A DNA stretch of 20,000 nt from the IMG/VR virus record IMGVR_UViG_3300042505_001397. One strand, 5' to 3'. This DNA comes from an uncultured virus (IMG/VR IMGVR_UViG_3300042505_001397). Taxonomy: Duplodnaviria; Heunggongvirae; Uroviricota; Caudoviricetes. Below are positions 3,411-19,993 of the stretch, piece after piece. The notes beneath the pieces were generated by a model. That model was not told where the DNA came from and searched no databases. It was given only the letters and a program-made list of their open reading frames with translations. Each line of letters opens with the position of its first letter. The first letter of the stretch is position 1. The position numbers were made by a program, and so were the translations under genes.

Positions 3411-3803
3411 TTACTCAGGTTTTTGCACAAAACCCAAAATGCCTTCTGCTCTTCGAGCCAAATCGAAGAAATTGTTTCTCACAAAGTCACTGCAACCACT
3501 CACATCAGTGCCAATTGCAACATCCTTAATTGCGGCCAAACCCTCCATGATTGCTTTGTTAGACCTAATTCCATTTTGCAAGAAAGCGATGTCTGCATTC
3601 AAAGACTCTTTAACGGCTTCAGATTGCAAAGAGCTCTGTTGCACCGCAGTCAACATGAACAGCAAAGGTTCACCCATGTTGTCTTTGATGACTGTGTTGA
3701 TATATTCCAAGTCAGCTCTTGCCTCATCATTGTCAAAACGGTTTTCGACTGATGCTTCTTGAATTTCAACTGTATTTTCTTCAACCACTACTTCTTGATT
3801 CAT
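3411..3803 (-). CDS. Hypothetical acidic protein, 130 aa
   Basis: SD GGGAG, operon packing, followed by a terminator. Confidence 0.75.
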   Translation of the reverse strand: MNQEVVVEENTVEIQEASVENRFDNDEARADLEYINTVIKDNMGEPLLFMLTAVQQSSLQSEAVKESLNADIAFLQNGIRSNKAIMEGLAAIKDVAIGTDVSGCSDFVRNNFFDLARRAEGILGFVQKPE

Positions 3804-3813
3804 TTTAACTCCC

Positions 3814-4119
3814 TTATTGGATTTGATTTTGGATGTACAATGCTTGTTTCAGTAAGTAGCCTTCTAAAGGCCATACTTTCTTGACGGCATCTGCTTTTGA
3901 ATATTTTCTTCCAAGTTCTGCTCTGAAATTTGCAGGATCAGCGCAAGCCGACTCACCTCTCACGGTGAAACCATTTTGCAGTGTCAAAATACAAATTGTC
4001 AAGGTACCGCCTTCGTGATATAGATACTCTTCTTTCACGATTTTCTTTGCAATACTTTCTTCAGTGACTCTGTTGTCATTTAATCCAAAGTCTTTTGCAT
4101 CTTTTTCGAAATCACTCAT
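3814..4119 (-). CDS. Phage N4 Gp49 / Sf6 Gp66 family protein
   Basis: Characteristic TICILTLQNGFTVRGESACADPANF...G...A...VWPLEGYLLK. Confidence 0.85.
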   Translation of the reverse strand: MSDFEKDAKDFGLNDNRVTEESIAKKIVKEEYLYHEGGTLTICILTLQNGFTVRGESACADPANFRAELGRKYSKADAVKKVWPLEGYLLKQALYIQNQIQ

Positions 4120-4131
4120 TTTATTTTTCCT

Positions 4132-5019
4132 TTATTTAATTGGGCAAATGCCACTTGCACATTCATCATTTGACTCGTAATCAATGTTTCCGGTCAGTGA
4201 TGAGATGATTTTTGTTTCACTCACAAGGTCATTGAATTGTTCTTCTGTAATCTCTTCATAAGGAGCTTGAGCGAACCCATGATCGGAATGCAATAAGAAT
4301 GACAATGATTTGTGATTATGCTTGTAGTTTTCTTTTAGATATTGTTTGATATCTTCAAGCTCTTCTTTGCGATAATACACTGTACAGCTCACGCTGTTGT
4401 CGGACCAGATTGTTTGAAGCTTCTTAATCATTTTCAACTGATCAATTGCAGTCATGTCTTTGGCCAACACGGTGCCTTCTGGATAACTGAAAGGAAATGT
4501 CACCACCACTGTGTTATAATCTTCAGAACCATCAAAGTTCTTCACGAATTCCACGGGATAGCCATTTTCCTTGCACACACCTACCAAAGGATGTGATGCA
4601 GCAATACGTATTCTTCTGTACATATACTGAGCATATGCAGGATGAATACCTGGAGTCACGCCTGGAAGTAGTGACAGTGTGCCTGATGGTTTAACGGTGG
4701 TCAGCTTAATTGACCGATTCATGTTGTTTTCTTCCGAATATTCTTCATCAAATATTCTCAAGAACTCATAACATTCATCCAGCCATTCAATTTGCTCTTC
4801 AGTTGCTTGAAGAATACCCGTGACACCGATGCCCATTCTCATGTTCTTGTGAACAATGTGCTCTGTTTCTCTGTTGTGAGAAGGTAGAAGCAATGAATGT
4901 TTGTTAATGCGATATAGCAATTGAGCCACATCAAACAACTCTTCTTTCGACTCAATATTTGGTAAAAAGATTTCTGCCAAACAGCATGTTTCAAAATTTA
5001 CCAATGATTGCTCTGCACA
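4132..5019 (-). CDS. nrdJ: Class II (adenosylcobalamin) ribonucleotide reductase, exon 2
   Basis: Begins with CAEQ (thiyl Cys and Glu); TTVKPSGTLSLL; WSDNSVSCTV; QAPYEEIT; C-terminal CASGICP redox pair. Confidence 0.92.
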   Translation of the reverse strand, partial: CAEQSLVNFETCCLAEIFLPNIESKEELFDVAQLLYRINKHSLLLPSHNRETEHIVHKNMRMGIGVTGILQATEEQIEWLDECYEFLRIFDEEYSEENNMNRSIKLTTVKPSGTLSLLPGVTPGIHPAYAQYMYRRIRIAASHPLVGVCKENGYPVEFVKNFDGSEDYNTVVVTFPFSYPEGTVLAKDMTAIDQLKMIKKLQTIWSDNSVSCTVYYRKEELEDIKQYLKENYKHNHKSLSFLLHSDHGFAQAPYEEITEEQFNDLVSETKIISSLTGNIDYESNDECASGICPIK

Positions 5020-5842
5020 CATTTTGTTACTCGATAAATCGAGGGTTGAATATTTCTATCAACCTCTATATATTACTATATAGTTCAGACTATATCATCA
5101 TCCATCTCTGGAGCTTATCGTCCGATTTTATAATAAAAGCTTTCAAATATAAAAGGATGAACAAGTGCTTCAAACTGTTTGTTAAAATGTTTTGGAAGCG
5201 TCAATCCATATTTATTTGTGGCTTGCTTTTCCACATTAAATTGGATGTTTAGTTTTTCTTTTATAGCGCCCGCTAACTGATAATTATCACCATAACTAAA
5301 TCCGTTTGTATGCAATCTATAAAGAGGACTTTCCTCACCAGATGCTAAGATTATCTTTTTTCTGCTACCATCTGCCATTAATATTATGGCCAAGGCTTCT
5401 GCATCTAAAAGTGTTAGCATATGAGGTTCTATTACTTTTTTACCTTCTAAATAAATTCTGTTTCGTATTTTAGTTAATTTAGGGTGCGCTTTAGATTGTA
5501 CACGAATTTGTTGTCGTCTATTACAACCATCATGTATATTCAAAGCTGGTTCCCAAATTTTATAGCCTATTTCAGCTGCTTCTAAAGTAAGAGCTACTTC
5601 ATGTATGTAATCACTATTTTCCTTTATCATTGTGACTGATAGTCGGGAATTGTGGTTTTCACCCCGTTTATCTAAGTATCCATCAAATGTTGAAAAGTAA
5701 TATAATCTCTTACTAATGTCTTTATTATTAATCATAGTCGTTGCACCTCTTTAATTAAAGTTGGCACAGGATTGCCTAATAGGTTTCCCTGTTTTTAGAT
5801 AAGTTTTCTATACTAATTACTCAGTATAGCCCCAATGCATTT
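5020..5842 (-). mobile_element. Group I intron (IA2, td-like) in nrdJ, 823 nt
   Basis: P1 UAUAACCCU/GGGGCUAUA with U-G at the splice site; P2 with GUAA loop; P3 CUUAUC/GAUAAG; P7 ACGACUA/UAGUCU; P8 with GAGA loop; P9 CUAUAUA-GUAA-UAUAUAG; ends ACAAAAUG. Removal restores YNP|CAE in frame (642 aa). Confidence 0.93.
5115..5735 (-). CDS. Intron-encoded LAGLIDADG homing endonuclease (two-motif, I-SceI/LAGLIDADG_2-like)
   Basis: Motifs YFSTFDG and ALAIILMADG; LHTNGFS; C-terminal FEALVHPFIFESFYYKI resembling the I-SceI C-terminus. Confidence 0.82.
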   Translation of the reverse strand: MINNKDISKRLYYFSTFDGYLDKRGENHNSRLSVTMIKENSDYIHEVALTLEAAEIGYKIWEPALNIHDGCNRRQQIRVQSKAHPKLTKIRNRIYLEGKKVIEPHMLTLLDAEALAIILMADGSRKKIILASGEESPLYRLHTNGFSYGDNYQLAGAIKEKLNIQFNVEKQATNKYGLTLPKHFNKQFEALVHPFIFESFYYKIGR

Positions 5843-6883
5843 AGGGTTATAACCTTCTACGTCTGGATCTGGGTACTCAAATTCTCCAAGTCTACCCATT
5901 TTACGTGAAAGATTCAGGTTAATAAGGCCATAGGGTTCAGAACCTCCTTCATAACCTCTCCAGAAATACTCATGCAAGTCATCGATATCATCACATATTA
6001 CACTGTTATTGCTCATTGCACGATATGATGGTATATTTCCCATGCTCCAGTTTTTCGCCAGTAAATACTCAACGTCATCGGGATCACCAATTGCAATTTG
6101 AGCACTTCTACGGACGTTACCTGCAACAATGATTGCGCCAATGATATTCATCATGTCCAATGCATCGACGGGTCTTATTTGTTTACCTCGTTTCTTTTCA
6201 AGTATTTTAGATATTTCCCCAATGCCCCAACATAGGTCTTCTGGCCCACTTGCAACGCCTCCAAAGCCCTTGATAGGTGTGCCTTTACCTCTAATCGCTT
6301 GCGTTGAATATGTGAATGTTCCATTGTCCTCTGTCTCACTCAAAAATGCCGATTTCAAAACTTTGCCCAAGAACTTTACCCAACCTTCTCTTGAGTCAGG
6401 GATGATGAAATCTGCACCACCGTTGTCAATTCTTGTCGGAGCTTTGAACCACTCTTTGACTGCAGGCAATTTCTCCACATTCTTTCTCTGAATGTTGAAA
6501 CCCACTCCACTTCCAAGAGCCAACATGTCCATTGCCCATGTGAATGGTCTCACTGGATTGTCGATGGTCACAAAAGCACAATTTTGCAATGAAGCCAACC
6601 CATACCTGTTCACGGTTGCTGTACCAGCTTGCCACCAATAGCGACCTGCTACAGAGCCTTTTAAACCCAATAAATGTGAAGCCAGTCGATATTCTTCGTC
6701 CTTGGTAAATCCACAGCCAAATTGTTCATCACACGCATTGATCACACGCAGCACTGTGTCAGGAAACTCTTCAGTTTCTTCTGAGACCTCATTGAGCTTT
6801 CTTGCATAAGTTCTTTTGTAAGTCAAGTATCCAACCGTTGACCACGGGGTTTCAATCTTCGGCAATTCTTCTTTTGTCAACAT
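5843..6883 (-). CDS. nrdJ: Class II ribonucleotide reductase (monomeric RTPR-like), exon 1
   Basis: TYKRTYAR, LQNCAF, LGSGVGF, DSREGW, IKGFGGVASGP, VAGNVRRSA, RAMSNNS; ends EGYNP. Confidence 0.92.
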
Positions 6884-8731: not shown

Positions 8732-9202
8732 TTATATTTCTCCTTTGAAATCGCCCCAAGACAGGGCTTTGTTTAAACGTTCTTTATGTCTTTCGGTTAT
8801 ATTTTCACTCACATTCCAAGAAATCTTTTCGATACGTTTATTGTACCATTCCTTCTTGGTGGGTGCTTCCACGTGGCACAGAGACCATGTTTCTGCGTAT
8901 GAAAGTGCTCCTTTGGCTTTGTATTGCTCTATGCAAATGAACTCAAAATCAGTCTTTGGTCTTTCGGCCAACATCTCTGAGATTGAATTACTTGAAGAAC
9001 AATATGTTTTCCAATTTGATTCTTGACCTTTATTCAGTTTGCCCGAACCTTTAAAAAGTTTCTTTCCAAGGTAAAAGCGTTTCATGTAAGGATCCCGAAT
9101 CACATATATGAAACCCGAATAAGCATCTTTGTCCATCGGCTCTTCAAAATGCCAGTGTCCATTTCTGCTCAACGGTTTCACAATCACTTTAGGAATCACC
9201 AT
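8732..9202 (-). CDS. GIY-YIG (Seg-like) nuclease-domain protein, free-standing
   Basis: GFIYVI...FYLGKK, WKTYCSSS, conserved E (YAET) and YN. Confidence 0.72.
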   Translation of the reverse strand: MVIPKVIVKPLSRNGHWHFEEPMDKDAYSGFIYVIRDPYMKRFYLGKKLFKGSGKLNKGQESNWKTYCSSSNSISEMLAERPKTDFEFICIEQYKAKGALSYAETWSLCHVEAPTKKEWYNKRIEKISWNVSENITERHKERLNKALSWGDFKGEI

Positions 9203-15866: not shown

Positions 15867-16546
15867 TTAAGCAAAACAATATTCTGAGTCTAAAATTAAA
15901 TTTAAATCAAGTGTACCTATTTCTACATTACTGATATCTCCTTGTATATCCTCCATAAGACTATTGAGAGGGTCATTTGCATACAATTCCACAAATGTTT
16001 CTCTCACCAATTTAAATAGCTTCGGCATATCTGCCAACAAACATCCAAACGAGTCGTGTATGGTTGTCATCGGGAAATCTGCCCTGTATACAGTCAAAGC
16101 CAGGTGTGCTGCATCCAAGCTGTGAATACAATTTGGACTTGCTCCTTGCGCTTGTTTACCCTTCGATGGTACATGATCTTCAATGAAACACACTGCCAGC
16201 TGAAGTGTATTTTCAAAGTAACCTGAGCTATTTCTCAAACCCAATGGCGGCCCGTATTGTACCCAGATTTTCTTTACTTTACCTTCTGTATAATGCTGTA
16301 CCACAGGAAAATTGGTTATTGGAACAGTCCAAGAAAGAAATCTTTCTTCCGCTTCCGCCTTTTTACCTGCTTCTTCAAATACAGTTAAGAGCCGCATAGG
16401 GCGTTCCAAAGCCGATTTGCAAGTCTCCAGCACCATTCTACCCATATAAGAGCCCCACTTATGTTCCATGAATAGTAGAAGATCTATACCATGTTTTCTT
16501 GCATCATCAATTTGTTGTTGACCAAGCCCATATGCAGTTCCGCCAT
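15867..16546 (-). CDS. T7-type single-subunit RNA polymerase, exon 3
   Basis: The frame is open back to 16546, giving (Y)GGTAYGLGQQ; WTVP..FPVVQ; SPNCIHSLDAAHL; motif C IHDSFG. Confidence 0.93.
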
Positions 16547-17284
16547 CGTTTTGTTCAGTGACAGTCGTTAGTTGTCACCCGTAATGTGTTTTCATTAAAA
16601 TTATTAAACTGCAAATTCACCGTACAGTTCTTTTGTTTTTGCAAGCACACATTCATGCGCTTCTTTTGCGGTATCAAATAACCCAAGATACAGCTTGACA
16701 CCGTTATGACCTAATCGTGCTTGAAACTTACCACTTGGCGTGCTTAAAACTCCTTTATAACCTGTTGTATTATTTGCAGGTTTTTCAGAGTTTATCTGAT
16801 TTTGTGATTGTGTGGCTATACGTAAATTTTCAATTCGATTATTTAAAGGGTTTCTGTCAATGTGGTCAATTTGCTCTTCCTTTTTCAATGCCTCGTTGAA
16901 TAATTCCCATATAATCCTGTGAACCATATAATTTTTTCTTTTATATTCAAATTGCATATAGCCGCTGCTATTTACCCATCCAACCTCAAATTTTCCATTA
17001 TTACTTTCATATCTAAATAATTTACCATCTTTGTAATATAATATATCTTTCCAATTCATTTCCGTTACCTACTTTTCAAACACATTACAGCTATATATTA
17101 CTATATAGACCAGACTATATCATCATGCAATTGCATGGAGTGCGCTTCCAAGACACTTGTCTTGTACTCCCTTTCGGGATAGTCGTTGCACCTTCAAAAA
17201 GATTTCTCTTTAAGCTTGGCTCAGGATTGACCACGGTGGATGGTTGTCCCCTGAATTCACACTCTTTTACTTCCACCTAGATTA
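16547..17284 (-). mobile_element. Group I intron (IA2) number 2 in RNAP, 738 nt
   Basis: P1 CUUCCAU/GUGGAAG; P3 GAGUGUG/CGCACUC; P7, P7.1 CCC-GAAA-GGG, P7.2, P8 and P9 as in T4 td; 13-bp P9.1 encloses the ORF; ends CUGAACAAAACG. Splicing gives MTLP-T|AT-GG. Confidence 0.95.
16604..17059 (-). CDS. Intron-encoded HNH-AP2 homing endonuclease
   Basis: VHRIIW...IDHIDRNPLNNRIENLR...N; AP2 domain NNTTGYKGV...FQARL...YLGLFDTAKEA. Confidence 0.92.
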   Translation of the reverse strand: MNWKDILYYKDGKLFRYESNNGKFEVGWVNSSGYMQFEYKRKNYMVHRIIWELFNEALKKEEQIDHIDRNPLNNRIENLRIATQSQNQINSEKPANNTTGYKGVLSTPSGKFQARLGHNGVKLYLGLFDTAKEAHECVLAKTKELYGEFAV

Positions 17285-18110
17285 ATGGAAGAGTCATTAC
17301 ATTTCTTTTGACAACTTTTCTACGTTGTTTTACGTCCTTAACTCTGCACCAATATATAGGTGCAATTTTTGGTATTATATCTATGTTTTTGTCTCTAAAT
17401 TCACGAATACGCTCTAAAAGTTCTTTTCTTTGTTCACTTTTAAATTCAGCATTGTAAATATCCTTTTTCAATTGTATTAATGTATCTATTACCGTTTCGG
17501 CTTCTCCAATTTCTTTTTTGGTGAATTTTGATTTTTCAATTTCCAGCTTATCCCACACATAATCTGCAACATATTTATATAGATCTCCAGGCAACTCAAG
17601 AGGTACTAAGTTAACGTGCGGTGCAGTTATTTCATCTTTTGTAAGTGCAGATAAATGTTGACTACCGTTGTTGCTTCCATCAACAAAGCACTCTAAACTT
17701 GAAGAATACCCAAAATCATTGAATGGATCTAGATGGAATCCATGCTTTATTTGCCATTCTCTCAATTTTTTAAGCTCATTACATGCCGCAAGGAATTGCC
17801 AAGGTTTATCTGCTTTCATCCAGCCTTGATTCACCTTGGGTTGCATTGCATAATCAAGCAATATGTCTTCATTATCTGTGGACCATAAATACCTATCCTT
17901 GAGTGGAATCTTATCCGTTTTTGCACCGTCTTCCCTTCCAGATGCTCCTGCCCAATTTGAAGCAATACTAACCATAAGCCAAAAGAAACCCTCCTTTCCA
18001 ATCTCCTTTTTGTCTTCTCTCAGCAAAAGACCTTTTGCTAAGTCAGTACCTTGTTCATGAAAATAAGCTGTTGCTGGATATCTTCTACCACGGAAGTCAT
18101 AATAATAACG
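17285..18110 (-). CDS. T7-type RNA polymerase, exon 2
   Basis: YDFRGRRYP, QGTDLAKGLL, ADKPWQFLAAC, motif A DGSNNGSQHLSAL, DLY, motif B RKVVKRNVMTLP. Confidence 0.93.
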
Positions 18111-18898
18111 CATTTGTTCAGAAAATTTCGCTAATATTTTCTCGTTAATTAACATGTGGCCAATTTCTTCCTGTTCGTATACAGTTAATTGTGCCAGGAT
18201 GCACACCGAATAATAATGCAATTTCTTTATTGGAAAAACCTGCAGAGAACATTGCTTTTATATCTCTCACGGACTCTTCATTTAATTTAGAATTTATTGC
18301 CGTTGTACCCTTCACCATCAATCCCAGATCTTTTGCATGTCTGACATTTTCTAGTTGTGTGCACCATTCTAAATTATCAATATTATTATTCTTTTTGTTT
18401 GCATCTAAGTGGTTTACTTTTGGCAAATTAAGCGGATTTGGTATAAAAACTAATGCCACTAATCTGTGAACCATTTCTTTCTTACTTTTACCGTTATAAC
18501 TCAGTGGCACTTGTAAATAACCTAGACCATTGTCATTTTGTTTCAAGATACGTCCGGCTTTCACATATTCCCCACCAAAAGTACTTTTGACAATTCTATC
18601 TTTACTCTTTACATTGCCATAAGAAGAAACTTCATAACACTCATCAAAATCTTTCCAGATTTCCATAATAATCTCCGACTATTTTAAATTAATTAACAGC
18701 TGTATATTACTATACAGTTCAGACTATATCATCTTGGCATCCGCCAAGCTCCGCGCTTCCACTAAGCTATTAGTGTACTCTACTAAGATTAACAAACATC
18801 CGTCTGTTCTTTTCGATAGTCGTTGCACCTTTTGAAGGCTCAGGATTGTCCTAAGGATGTTTCCTGAATTCACGGAGTTTACTACCACCGACATATTA
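18111..18898 (-). mobile_element. Group I intron (IA2) number 1 in RNAP, 788 nt
   Basis: P1 CUACCAU/GUGGUAG; P3 CUCCGUG/CGCGGAG; P7 ACGACUA/UAGUCU; P9; 10-bp P9.1 encloses the ORF; ends CUGAACAAAUG. Splicing gives FYH|RYYYDFRGR in frame. Confidence 0.92.
18145..18666 (-). CDS. Intron-encoded NUMOD4-HNH homing endonuclease (I-HmuI-like) with C-terminal HTH
   Basis: EIWKD...YEVSSYGNVKS (NUMOD4); VHRLVA..FIPNP...VNHLDANKKNN...NLEWCT..EN..HA; SD GGAG. Confidence 0.93.
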   Translation of the reverse strand: MEIWKDFDECYEVSSYGNVKSKDRIVKSTFGGEYVKAGRILKQNDNGLGYLQVPLSYNGKSKKEMVHRLVALVFIPNPLNLPKVNHLDANKKNNNIDNLEWCTQLENVRHAKDLGLMVKGTTAINSKLNEESVRDIKAMFSAGFSNKEIALLFGVHPGTINCIRTGRNWPHVN

Positions 18899-19642
18899 AT
18901 GGTAGAAAGTTTTTCCAATGAACCTTTTTGCGATATTTCCTATGGCTTTTGCTTCTCTTAGCTTAGTTGCCTTTGCTTCAGGGTTCTGAGAATCCCATAT
19001 GTCTGAAAAAGCTTCAGTTTTATTCCGAAGCGCCCAGTTGTATATCTTGAAAACATCTTCATTAACGTTCCAGCCCATTGCTTGAGATCTGTTTATGCAC
19101 TCAAATATGATCGGGTGTGTTTCTGGAGTGACTTTTGACATCACTTCCTTGCTGCCTGTTTTGATCATCACGGCACCGGACTCATGTCTCAGACTTGTCC
19201 AAGATGCATAGGGTGTTAATGATGGTAATTTCTCTACAGCATCTACTTCGACTTTCTCCCATAATTCGCATATGATTTCATCATTTAGCACTTGAATGAT
19301 ATATGCTGCATGTTTTCCATTTGACTTGCCCAAGAGCACTGTGATCAGACCAAGTTCTTCAAATGAGTAAAGTAAGAATGCCCCTGTCTTTGCAGCCAAG
19401 GAAGAGTCTTTCTTCATCTTGTATTTGCTTCTGACTCCGTGCCCGATTGCAGAGATAACCTCAGTTAGATAAATGGTATTCTTTTTTGATCCCTTTTTTG
19501 ATCTTGTATATAAGTAAACTATTGATACAAGAACATCAAAGTAGTCTTCCACTTCAAGCTCCTTCAAGTATTTCAAAGGGTTTTGATTCGATATTTCATT
19601 TGCCAATCTGGATTTCAATGATGATATTAATATTTGTCTCAT
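18899..19642 (-). CDS. T7-type RNA polymerase, exon 1 (spliced product about 749 aa)
   Basis: Ends INRSQAMGWNVNEDVF...AKRFIGKTFYH, the segment preceding DxRGRxY in T7-type RNAPs. Start placed at ATG 19642, downstream of the hairpin (start less certain). Confidence 0.85.
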
Positions 19643-19665: not shown

Positions 19666-19691
19666 ATAAAAGGGCACCCCGAAGGGTGCCC
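19666..19691 (-). terminator. GC-rich UUCG terminator-like hairpin just upstream of RNAP
   Basis: GGGCACCC-TTCG-GGGTGCCC-TTTTAT, 4 nt after the stop of the 43-aa ORF. Confidence 0.85.
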
Positions 19692-19928: not shown

Positions 19929-19965
<37 letters not shown>

Positions 19966-19973
19966 ATTAAGGG

Positions 19974-19993
19974 AGGGGCCCCAAAGGGCCCCT
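19974..19993. terminator. GC-rich hairpin beside the A-tract
   Basis: AGGGGCCC-CAAA-GGGCCCCT, followed by TT on + and, 9 nt later, T33 on -. Confidence 0.55.

Follow-up and report, generated by a model that had tools for sequence, protein, structure and literature searches.

The RNA polymerase gene and its exons

The DNA analysed here, hereafter the window, is a stretch of 20,000 nucleotides from an uncultured virus of the Caudoviricetes (IMG/VR record IMGVR_UViG_3300042505_001397). Between positions 15,867 and 19,642 its minus strand carries an RNA polymerase (RNAP) gene in three exons, separated by two insertions that have the features of group I introns and that each hold a gene for an HNH homing endonuclease. 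Judged from its sequence, the gene is that of a T7-type single-subunit RNAP of an uncultured lake phage, and its product is predicted to transcribe in a promoter-specific manner.

Exon 1 (18899..19642, minus strand) comprises 248 codons and encodes the N-terminal region from an ATG start codon at 19642, with the matches of relatives also beginning at residue 1. Exon 2 (17285..18110, minus strand) consists of 275 codons and the first base of a tyrosine codon, and encodes motif A and most of motif B, while exon 3 (15867..16546, minus strand) supplies the last two bases of that tyrosine codon, a further 225 codons and the stop, and encodes motif C and a C-terminus ending in YCFA. Joined together, the 744, 826 and 680 nt of the exons give 2250 nt, or 750 codons with a single terminal stop, and a product of 749 amino acids. 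A preliminary description of this DNA, made from the sequence without database searches, had proposed that three exons join in frame to about 749 residues with motifs A, B and C, and its coordinates proved to be exact.

The Pfam family RNA_pol (PF00940) matches exon 2 with 115.7 bits (E 3.1e-33) and exon 3 with 85.4 bits (E 5e-24), against a cut-off of 22 bits. Exon 1 has no Pfam match, and in intronless relatives it is contiguous with the remaining gene. The product aligns over its full length with T7 RNAP (gene 1 from NC_001604; 187 identities in 675 aligned positions) and with uninterrupted relatives, its N-terminus being shorter than that of T7. In the T7 alignment, motif A reads VDGS at T7 D537-S539, motif B reads RRKVVKRNVMTLPYGG at R627-G640 and motif C reads IHDSFG at H811-D812, and the C-terminal YCFA stands where T7 has FAFA. 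The Asp of motif A, the helix of motif B with its Arg, Lys, Tyr and Gly, and the His-Asp of motif C are the residues that we take to have catalytic roles.

The two introns

Intron 1 (18111..18898, minus strand; 788 nt) lies at a site, here named A, after the residue aligned to T7 F416, and intron 2 (16547..17284, minus strand; 738 nt) interrupts the codon that aligns with T7 Tyr639, a site named C2. Translation running on from either exon would end almost at once: exon 1 ends in ...CAT and intron 1 opens with TAA, a stop at the first in-frame codon, while exon 2 ends in ...CCA T, from where the frame continues TTA ATC TAG, with a stop at the third codon. This is as the preliminary description had it, with a stop one to three codons into each intron. 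Intron 2 is in phase 1 and splits its tyrosine codon as T|AT.

Searches with the Rfam group I intron model RF00028, for which the gathering score is 50 bits, were run in E-value mode on shorter stretches and matched both insertions, intron 1 with 59.8 bits (E 1.5e-14) over 18908-18700 and intron 2 with 82.0 bits (E 1.9e-20) over 17308-17091. The 5' borders can be folded into P1 helices of the expected kind. In intron 1 the exon segment CUACCAU pairs with the intron segment GUGGUAG, in intron 2 the exon segment CUUCCAU pairs with the intron segment GUGGAAG, and each helix has 7 bp with a U.G pair at the splice site. The terminal exon base before each intron is U and the terminal base of both introns is G.

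The 3' ends are alike as well. A P9.1 stem of 10 pairs in intron 1 (18697-18688 with 18153-18144) and of 13 pairs in intron 2 (17090-17078 with 16591-16579) brackets the HNH open reading frame (ORF), and 3' of this stem both introns have a 7-bp hairpin followed by a short tail ending in G. In intron 1 this 3' element (18111..18153, minus strand) consists of the P9.1 3' strand at 18153-18144, the P9.2 hairpin at 18142-18120 and a tail that ends with the G at 18111; in intron 2 (16547..16591, minus strand) it consists of the P9.1 3' strand at 16591-16579, the P9.2 hairpin with a UAACGA-type loop at 16578-16558 and a tail that ends with the G at 16547. On this combination of borders and fold, both gaps are identified as group I introns, and both are predicted to be self-splicing.

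Intron occupancy among relatives

With exon 2 as query, IMG/VR yielded 71 loci, 56 of which belong to one clade (exon-2 protein identity of at least 45%). Loci are cited here by number; L002, among the 56, is the window's own sequence, and duplicates were kept (e.g. L056 and L066). At least one intron is present in 14 of the 56 loci, and the other 42 are without insertion where covered. At junction A there is an insertion in 4/53 loci and a gap of exactly 0 nt in 49/53; at a further junction, B, the figures are 4/56 and 52/56, and in the region around the second junction of the window, region C, they are 8/53 and 45/53, with site C2 itself occupied in 4/53. The gaps of exactly 0 nt in the intron-free loci therefore establish the exon borders to the base, and chance is excluded as the source of the colinearity of the exon joins. 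The intronless alleles that the preliminary description had wished to see are thus present in IMG/VR. Continuous RNAP ORFs were found in L003 (749 aa) and L005 (760 aa), and the complete relatives are about 70-82 kb in size.

Reading of the intron borders divides region C into three sites, giving five sites in the clade, all of which lie in or near conserved motifs of the T7 alignment. Site A, after T7 F416 and just before a DWRGR-type block, carries introns in the window (L002), L046, L027 and L029. Site B lies in motif A between T7 G538 and S539 and is occupied in L046, L055, L056 and L066. Site C1 lies between T7 R632 and S633 (introns in L006, L018, L030 and L035), site C2 inside the T7 Y639 codon (introns in the window (L002), L022, L032 and L048) and site C3 after T7 R647 (an intron in L035). 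The RNAP gene of L035 thus holds, at 3589-4644, two introns only 45 nt apart: the one at C1 is 295 nt long and ORF-less and keeps a remnant of an endonuclease C-terminus, the one at C3 is 716 nt long and bears an ORF, and the mini-exon of 15 codons between them encodes NVMTLPYGGTAYGLG, the core of motif B.

Covariation of the intron cores

Sixteen intron cores from the five sites were aligned and compared with a structure drawn from intron 2, in which P7 was treated as a pseudoknot and from which the P6a/P6b helices of intron 2 were excluded, as they overlapped P6. Across the 16 cores, 92.2% of the paired cells can pair, whereas shifting the 3' partners by 1-3 columns leaves 34-46%; compensatory changes on both sides occur in 33 of the 50 pairs, and none of 500 shuffles reached any of the observed measures. 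The U.G pair at the splice site is present in 16/16 introns. P1 is paired in 98.2% of cells despite exon sequences that vary from site to site, with two-sided changes in 6 of its 7 pairs; each guide sequence therefore matches its own exon. P3 is 100% paired with compensatory changes in 5/5 pairs, P4, P8 and P9 are paired in 98.8%, 90.5% and 100% of cells, and P7 is invariant. Complementary P9.1 stems of differing sequence bracket the ORF in most of the introns, and all 17 of 17 introns, when that of Pseudomonas syringae phage Draal03 (described below) is added to the 16 of the clade, follow a T and end in G.

Very probably, then, the RNAP gene of the window is interrupted by two introns of group I that belong to a single family and are mobile and self-splicing. 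A different account of the same arrangement is that of a gene in pieces, in which no splicing takes place and the RNAP is made as three polypeptides that assemble. Split polymerases and split phage genes do occur. The ribonucleotide reductase of Aeh1 is reportedly a gene split by a homing endonuclease gene, and an engineered split T7 RNAP is on record (MG833025). In N4-like Pseudomonas phages ZC03 and ZC08, homing endonuclease genes split the gene for RNAP subunit 2 (PMC5418858). Against three separate polypeptides stands the finding that both insertions hold complete ribozyme cores with covariation and that intron 2 splits a codon. The reading frames also speak against them: the first in-frame start of exon 3 is the Met at 16469, and starting there would lose 26 residues counted from the split Tyr, including the YG of motif B, while exon 2 has no start of its own at 18110 and is reached from the HNH ORF in a different frame. 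We therefore regard assembly from separately made fragments as very improbable, and retain the reading of two spliced introns.

Several points weigh against that reading. Intron 1 scores less than 10 bits above the Rfam cut-off, and a gathering-mode Rfam scan of the whole 20-kb window gave 0 matches and so missed both introns, which is put down to a false negative caused by the speed filters. A convincing P10 pairing was sought by eye and none was established. No RNA run was found to contain the locus, and splicing and the ligated junctions are thus predictions. The pairing of P7.1 and P7.2 in the structure used is weak across the alignment, at 55.7% and 72.7% of cells; the two hairpins can be drawn in intron 2, and the region is poorly aligned, with a large insertion in the site-A introns. 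In the classification of Michel and Westhof, subgroup IA is reportedly marked by two hairpins of this kind, additional to the common core and placed between P7 and the P3 3' strand. The use of a structure taken from intron 2 favours true over slid pairing in the percentage of paired cells, while the compensatory counts are independent of that origin. Finally, for this uncultured phage endonuclease activity and homing are likewise predictions.

The HNH endonuclease genes

Both introns carry their HNH gene behind P9, on the same strand as the RNAP. That of intron 1 (18145..18666, minus strand) encodes 173 aa with Pfam matches to NUMOD4, HNH_3 and HTH_38, and has its best PHROG match in phrog_59 (E 5e-52). 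That of intron 2 (16604..17059, minus strand) encodes 151 aa with a match to HNH_3 (E 5e-16), matches phrog_99 (E 4.6e-53) and has a weakly AP2-like C-terminus (7ET4, E 0.0098). Among solved structures, both match I-HmuI (1U3E) best, with E 2.3e-9 for the ORF of intron 1 and E 0.0028 for that of intron 2. The earlier recognition of two group I introns with HNH genes is hence upheld by the RF00028 scores of 59.8 and 82.0 bits, the covariation and the HNH_3 matches.

The endonuclease lineages follow the insertion sites. ORFs at the same site share 59-97% identity at site A, 57-69% at B, 68-72% at C1 and 58-67% at C2, the ORF of intron 1 being 59-97% identical to those of the other site-A introns and the ORF of intron 2 61-67% identical to those of the other C2 introns. 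The single ORF at C3 is 34-39% identical to the C1 and C2 types, and the two HNH ORFs of the window are 35% identical to each other, over the HNH core.

In two relatives the ORF has decayed, with 89 aa left in L032 and a 27-codon remnant in the C1 intron of L035. Such decay would be compatible with a locus in which one or both introns are splicing-dead and the RNAP is a pseudogene in this genome. In the window, however, both HNH ORFs are of full length and all the core helices are intact, the exons are free of stops and frameshifts and encode proteins 95-100% identical to those of L046, the closest relative, and the allele recurs across several independent lake assemblies. A decayed locus is accordingly held to be very unlikely, only marginally less so than a gene in pieces, and intact, splicing introns remain the preferred interpretation.

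Support from independent assemblies

Intron-like sequence from other phages might also have been joined into an RNAP gene during metagenome assembly. The intron cores do recruit extra depth, and contigs diverge at 17091, 17125 and 17228 in intron 2 and at 18699 and 18733 in intron 1. The double interruption is nevertheless found in the same arrangement in the IMG/VR contig L002, contigs of other runs cross all four borders, and the guide sequences of both introns complement their own flanking exons. Logan contigs of four further lake-water runs extend across exon-intron borders and have 0 differences there, among them X2 record 11, which spans 16341-17506, and X4 record 22, which spans 18014-18784. 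There is hardly any probability left for a chimeric assembly, and we take the doubly interrupted gene as real.

Among the Logan contigs of the four DNA runs there was no intron-free joint. One contig skips 61 nt (17118-17180), which looks like the shorter P8 region of a relative. In four lake metagenome runs, the intron-core segments 17091-17240 and 18682-18812 have about twice the depth of their flanks, and many contigs continue from these conserved segments into unrelated sequence; the intron family is therefore common in other genomic contexts there.

Comparison with the closest relative

The closest relative, L046, carries introns at sites A and B and none at C2, while the window has them at A and C2. 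Divergence between the two is uneven along the gene. The two sequences disagree at 75 of the 744 nt of exon 1 (10.1%), 20 of the 826 nt of exon 2 (2.4%) and 51 of the 680 nt of exon 3 (7.5%), while the intron that they share at site A differs at 11 of 788 nt (1.4%) and is thus 98.6% identical, next to an exon 1 that is 90% identical. Of the 20 differences in exon 2, nine are found no farther than 8 nt from the B and C2 junctions, and none of the nine alters the protein; these clusters, at 1176-1182 and 1563-1569 of the spliced mRNA, fall where the intron content of L046 and the window differs.

The presence of a different set of introns in so nearly identical a phage points to recent mobility. 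From the mosaic pattern of L046 we infer a recent transfer of introns with co-conversion of the flanking exon, although selection on pairing with the guide sequence, or escape from cleavage, would fit the pattern as well.

Proposed mechanism and possible consequences

In the ribozyme fold of each intron, the end of the 5' exon pairs with the internal guide sequence and forms the U.G pair of the splice site; the P3-P9 core comes next, and the long-range P9.1 stem brackets the HNH gene and returns the 3' splice site, ending in G, to the core. In the mechanism that we propose, both introns would then excise themselves after transcription by the guanosine-initiated two-step transesterification. 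Active enzyme would be encoded solely by the doubly spliced mRNA; the motif-B codon that aligns with Tyr639 is broken up by intron 2, and the separate pieces lack usable starts. By analogy with the known members of the family, we infer that the HNH enzymes nick the matching intron-free allele of a co-infecting relative, whereupon repair would copy the intron into it and so drive homing. Indirect support for such homing comes from the grouping of the ORFs by insertion site and from an intron 1 that is 98.6% identical in two phages with only 90% identity in exon 1.

Compatible with this mechanism is an adaptive role, put forward in part by the preliminary description, in which splicing delays transcription by the phage RNAP or the HNH enzymes act as weapons against intron-free co-infecting relatives. 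In its favour, the HNH enzyme gp210 of phage PhiPA3 nicks the homologue of PhiKZ and gives a competitive advantage (PMC11620839), relatives with and without introns are found side by side in IMG/VR (an intron in 14 of the 56 loci, as given above), and the synonymous differences from L046 are clustered at the B and C2 junctions. Against this, effects on timing, cleavage and fitness would all be predictions, cleavage of co-infecting relatives being plausible by analogy with gp210 and the delay a pure conjecture. Co-conversion accounts just as well for the clusters of synonymous changes, as does a requirement that exons pair with the guide. The literature searched did not describe any group I intron that times the expression of a phage RNAP. 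Such a role is, in our view, rather unlikely.

A wider and equally doubtful suggestion is that the RNAP gene is a battleground in this clade of lake phages of about 75 kb. The site-specific lineages of HNH introns at the five sites would then serve as weapons of competition between co-infecting relatives, like gp210 of PhiPA3 among jumbo phages, and the synonymous changes at empty sites (e.g. C2 of L046) would be immunity alleles under selection for escape from cleavage. As many as two splicing events would be needed for phage transcription, among them splicing across the 45-nt mini-exon of motif B. The interpretation that we favour is the narrower one of two mobile, self-splicing introns.

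Other elements in the window

Upstream of the RNAP gene, about 30 nt before its start codon, lies a terminator-like hairpin (19672..19691, minus strand) in which 7 of the 8 pairs are G-C and which runs into TTTT; a role as a terminator is putative. Farther upstream (19932-19964 and 19970-19990), the minus strand has 33 consecutive T and, before them, a hairpin rich in G+C (GGGGCCC...GGGGCCCC). This run and its hairpin stand upstream of a hydrophobic ORF of 43 codons (19827-19696) and of the terminator-like hairpin at 19691-19672. The 33-T run could be a real homopolymer or an artefact of assembly.

A third group I intron splits the ribonucleotide reductase gene at 4132-6883 on the minus strand into 6883-5813 and 5022-4132, the two parts matching positions 26-370 and 388-697 of phrog_367. 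An ORF for a LAGLIDADG-type endonuclease lies between them at 5735-5115, with flanking RF00028 matches of 45.9 bits (5852-5720) and 38.3 bits (5196-5066), neither of which reaches the 50-bit cut-off. The same ribonucleotide reductase intron occurs in record G001, a fragment of 17 kb in which it is the only one of the three introns. A free-standing ORF of 156 aa resembling homing endonucleases (8732-9202, minus strand; phrog_7363, E 1e-11; phrog_447) sits between the primase/helicase and exonuclease genes.

Comparison with known systems

Group I introns carrying HNH genes are textbook elements of essential phage genes, and the introns described here are an element of an ordinary kind in a host gene for which there is apparently no description in print. 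The full texts searched, those of papers available without subscription, did not mention any intron in a T7-type RNAP, in line with the view of the preliminary description that a doubly interrupted gene of this type was not known. The novelty thus lies in the hallmark polymerase of T7-like phages being an intron target and in the presence of five sites in one uncultured clade, one of them inside the codon aligned to T7 Tyr639. The load reaches up to two introns per gene, with one relative in which only a 45-nt mini-exon stands between the two. These variants in intron set, with endonuclease lineages that follow their sites, offer a natural series for the study of homing, co-conversion and possibly competition.

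In T7-like phages, the introns described so far sit in DNA polymerase, whereas the two of the window sit together in one RNA polymerase gene. Phage phiL7 reportedly has a group I intron in its DNA polymerase gene, and Bonocora and Shub are said to have described introns in the DNA polymerase of PhiI/W31 in 2004. Two more T7-like phages of this kind are Pf-WMP3, whose DNA polymerase gene contains an intron with the HNH endonuclease I-PfoP3I (PMC3428280), and K1F, with a group I intron in the same gene (PMC4925675). The introns of the window resemble these in having a T4-type core and HNH endonucleases of the nicking type and in interrupting an essential polymerase at catalytic motifs. By DNA similarity, members of the same intron family are also found in Xanthomonas phage Valrath's gene for DNA polymerase and in the primase/helicase gene of ULINTec6.

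Among cultured phages, the motif-B region of T7 was found at 1716 places in 1711 records, so that at most 5 records have two places. Xanthomonas phage P4, whose RNAP is split, was considered as an intron case and rejected, its two coding sequences (CDS) overlapping with no insertion. A related, unannotated intron does occur in the Pseudomonas syringae phages Draal01-03 and Drael01 (GenBank PP179319-PP179322), whose records give the RNAP as a pair of CDS flanking a 'hypothetical protein'; in Draal03 (PP179319) it lies at 3977-4748 of L077. The Draal/Drael intron likewise has a T7-type RNAP as its host gene, and its core is about 84% identical to that of intron 2 over two conserved pieces, with a matching guide sequence, the same 3' hairpin and a tail ending in G. 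Against Rfam it scores only 25.6 bits. It differs from the introns of the window in being single, in its site, which is in motif B at the Val codon of KTPV|MTY (read as T7 V634), and in having its ORF in the P6 region, this ORF being unrelated to the HNH ORFs of the window. The word 'intron' has 0 occurrences in the main text of the paper on these phages (PMC11256456).

The preliminary description had held that many known examples at the same sites would speak against its reading. Examples at these sites do exist in metagenomic loci (A and C2 occupied in 4/53 each), and the cultured Dracovirus intron lies five codons upstream of C2, so that this objection applies in part. That gene callers fragment such polymerases can be seen in the Draal/Drael records, and the failure of the default fast Rfam scan to detect either intron of the window calls for caution in pipeline annotation. 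Because callers fragment the genes and the Rfam scan misses the introns, surveys based on Autographiviridae-like marker genes may under-call or mis-size the RNAP.

Outside T7-like phages, the nearest parallel for the number of introns is Staphylococcus phage Twort, in whose nrdE gene Landthaler et al. reportedly found two group I introns in 2002. Twort nrdE and the RNAP of the window have in common that several self-splicing introns, those of the window by prediction, interrupt one essential phage gene; they are unlike in the gene interrupted and in the group of phages. For the endonucleases, the parallel is I-HmuI, the nicking HNH endonuclease of the DNA polymerase intron of Bacillus phage SPO1. 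The ORF of intron 1 shares with I-HmuI its layout of an HNH domain and a C-terminal helix-turn-helix; identity is low, and the tail of the intron 2 ORF is AP2-like and not a helix-turn-helix.

The jumbo phage PhiPA3 provides the comparison closest in function. Birkholz et al. 2024 (PMC11620839) place the HNH protein gp210 in a group I intron of a virion RNAP subunit gene. Intron-mediated competition in RNAP genes is not known to have been shown except for this multisubunit enzyme of a jumbo phage. PhiPA3 and the window are alike in having an HNH-carrying intron in a phage-encoded RNAP gene. They differ in that PhiPA3 has one intron in a subunit of a multisubunit RNAP, with experimental proof, whereas the window has two in a single-subunit T7-type RNAP, known from sequence. 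By analogy, PhiPA3 gp210 is the closest functional precedent for the introns of the T7-type polymerase gene described here.

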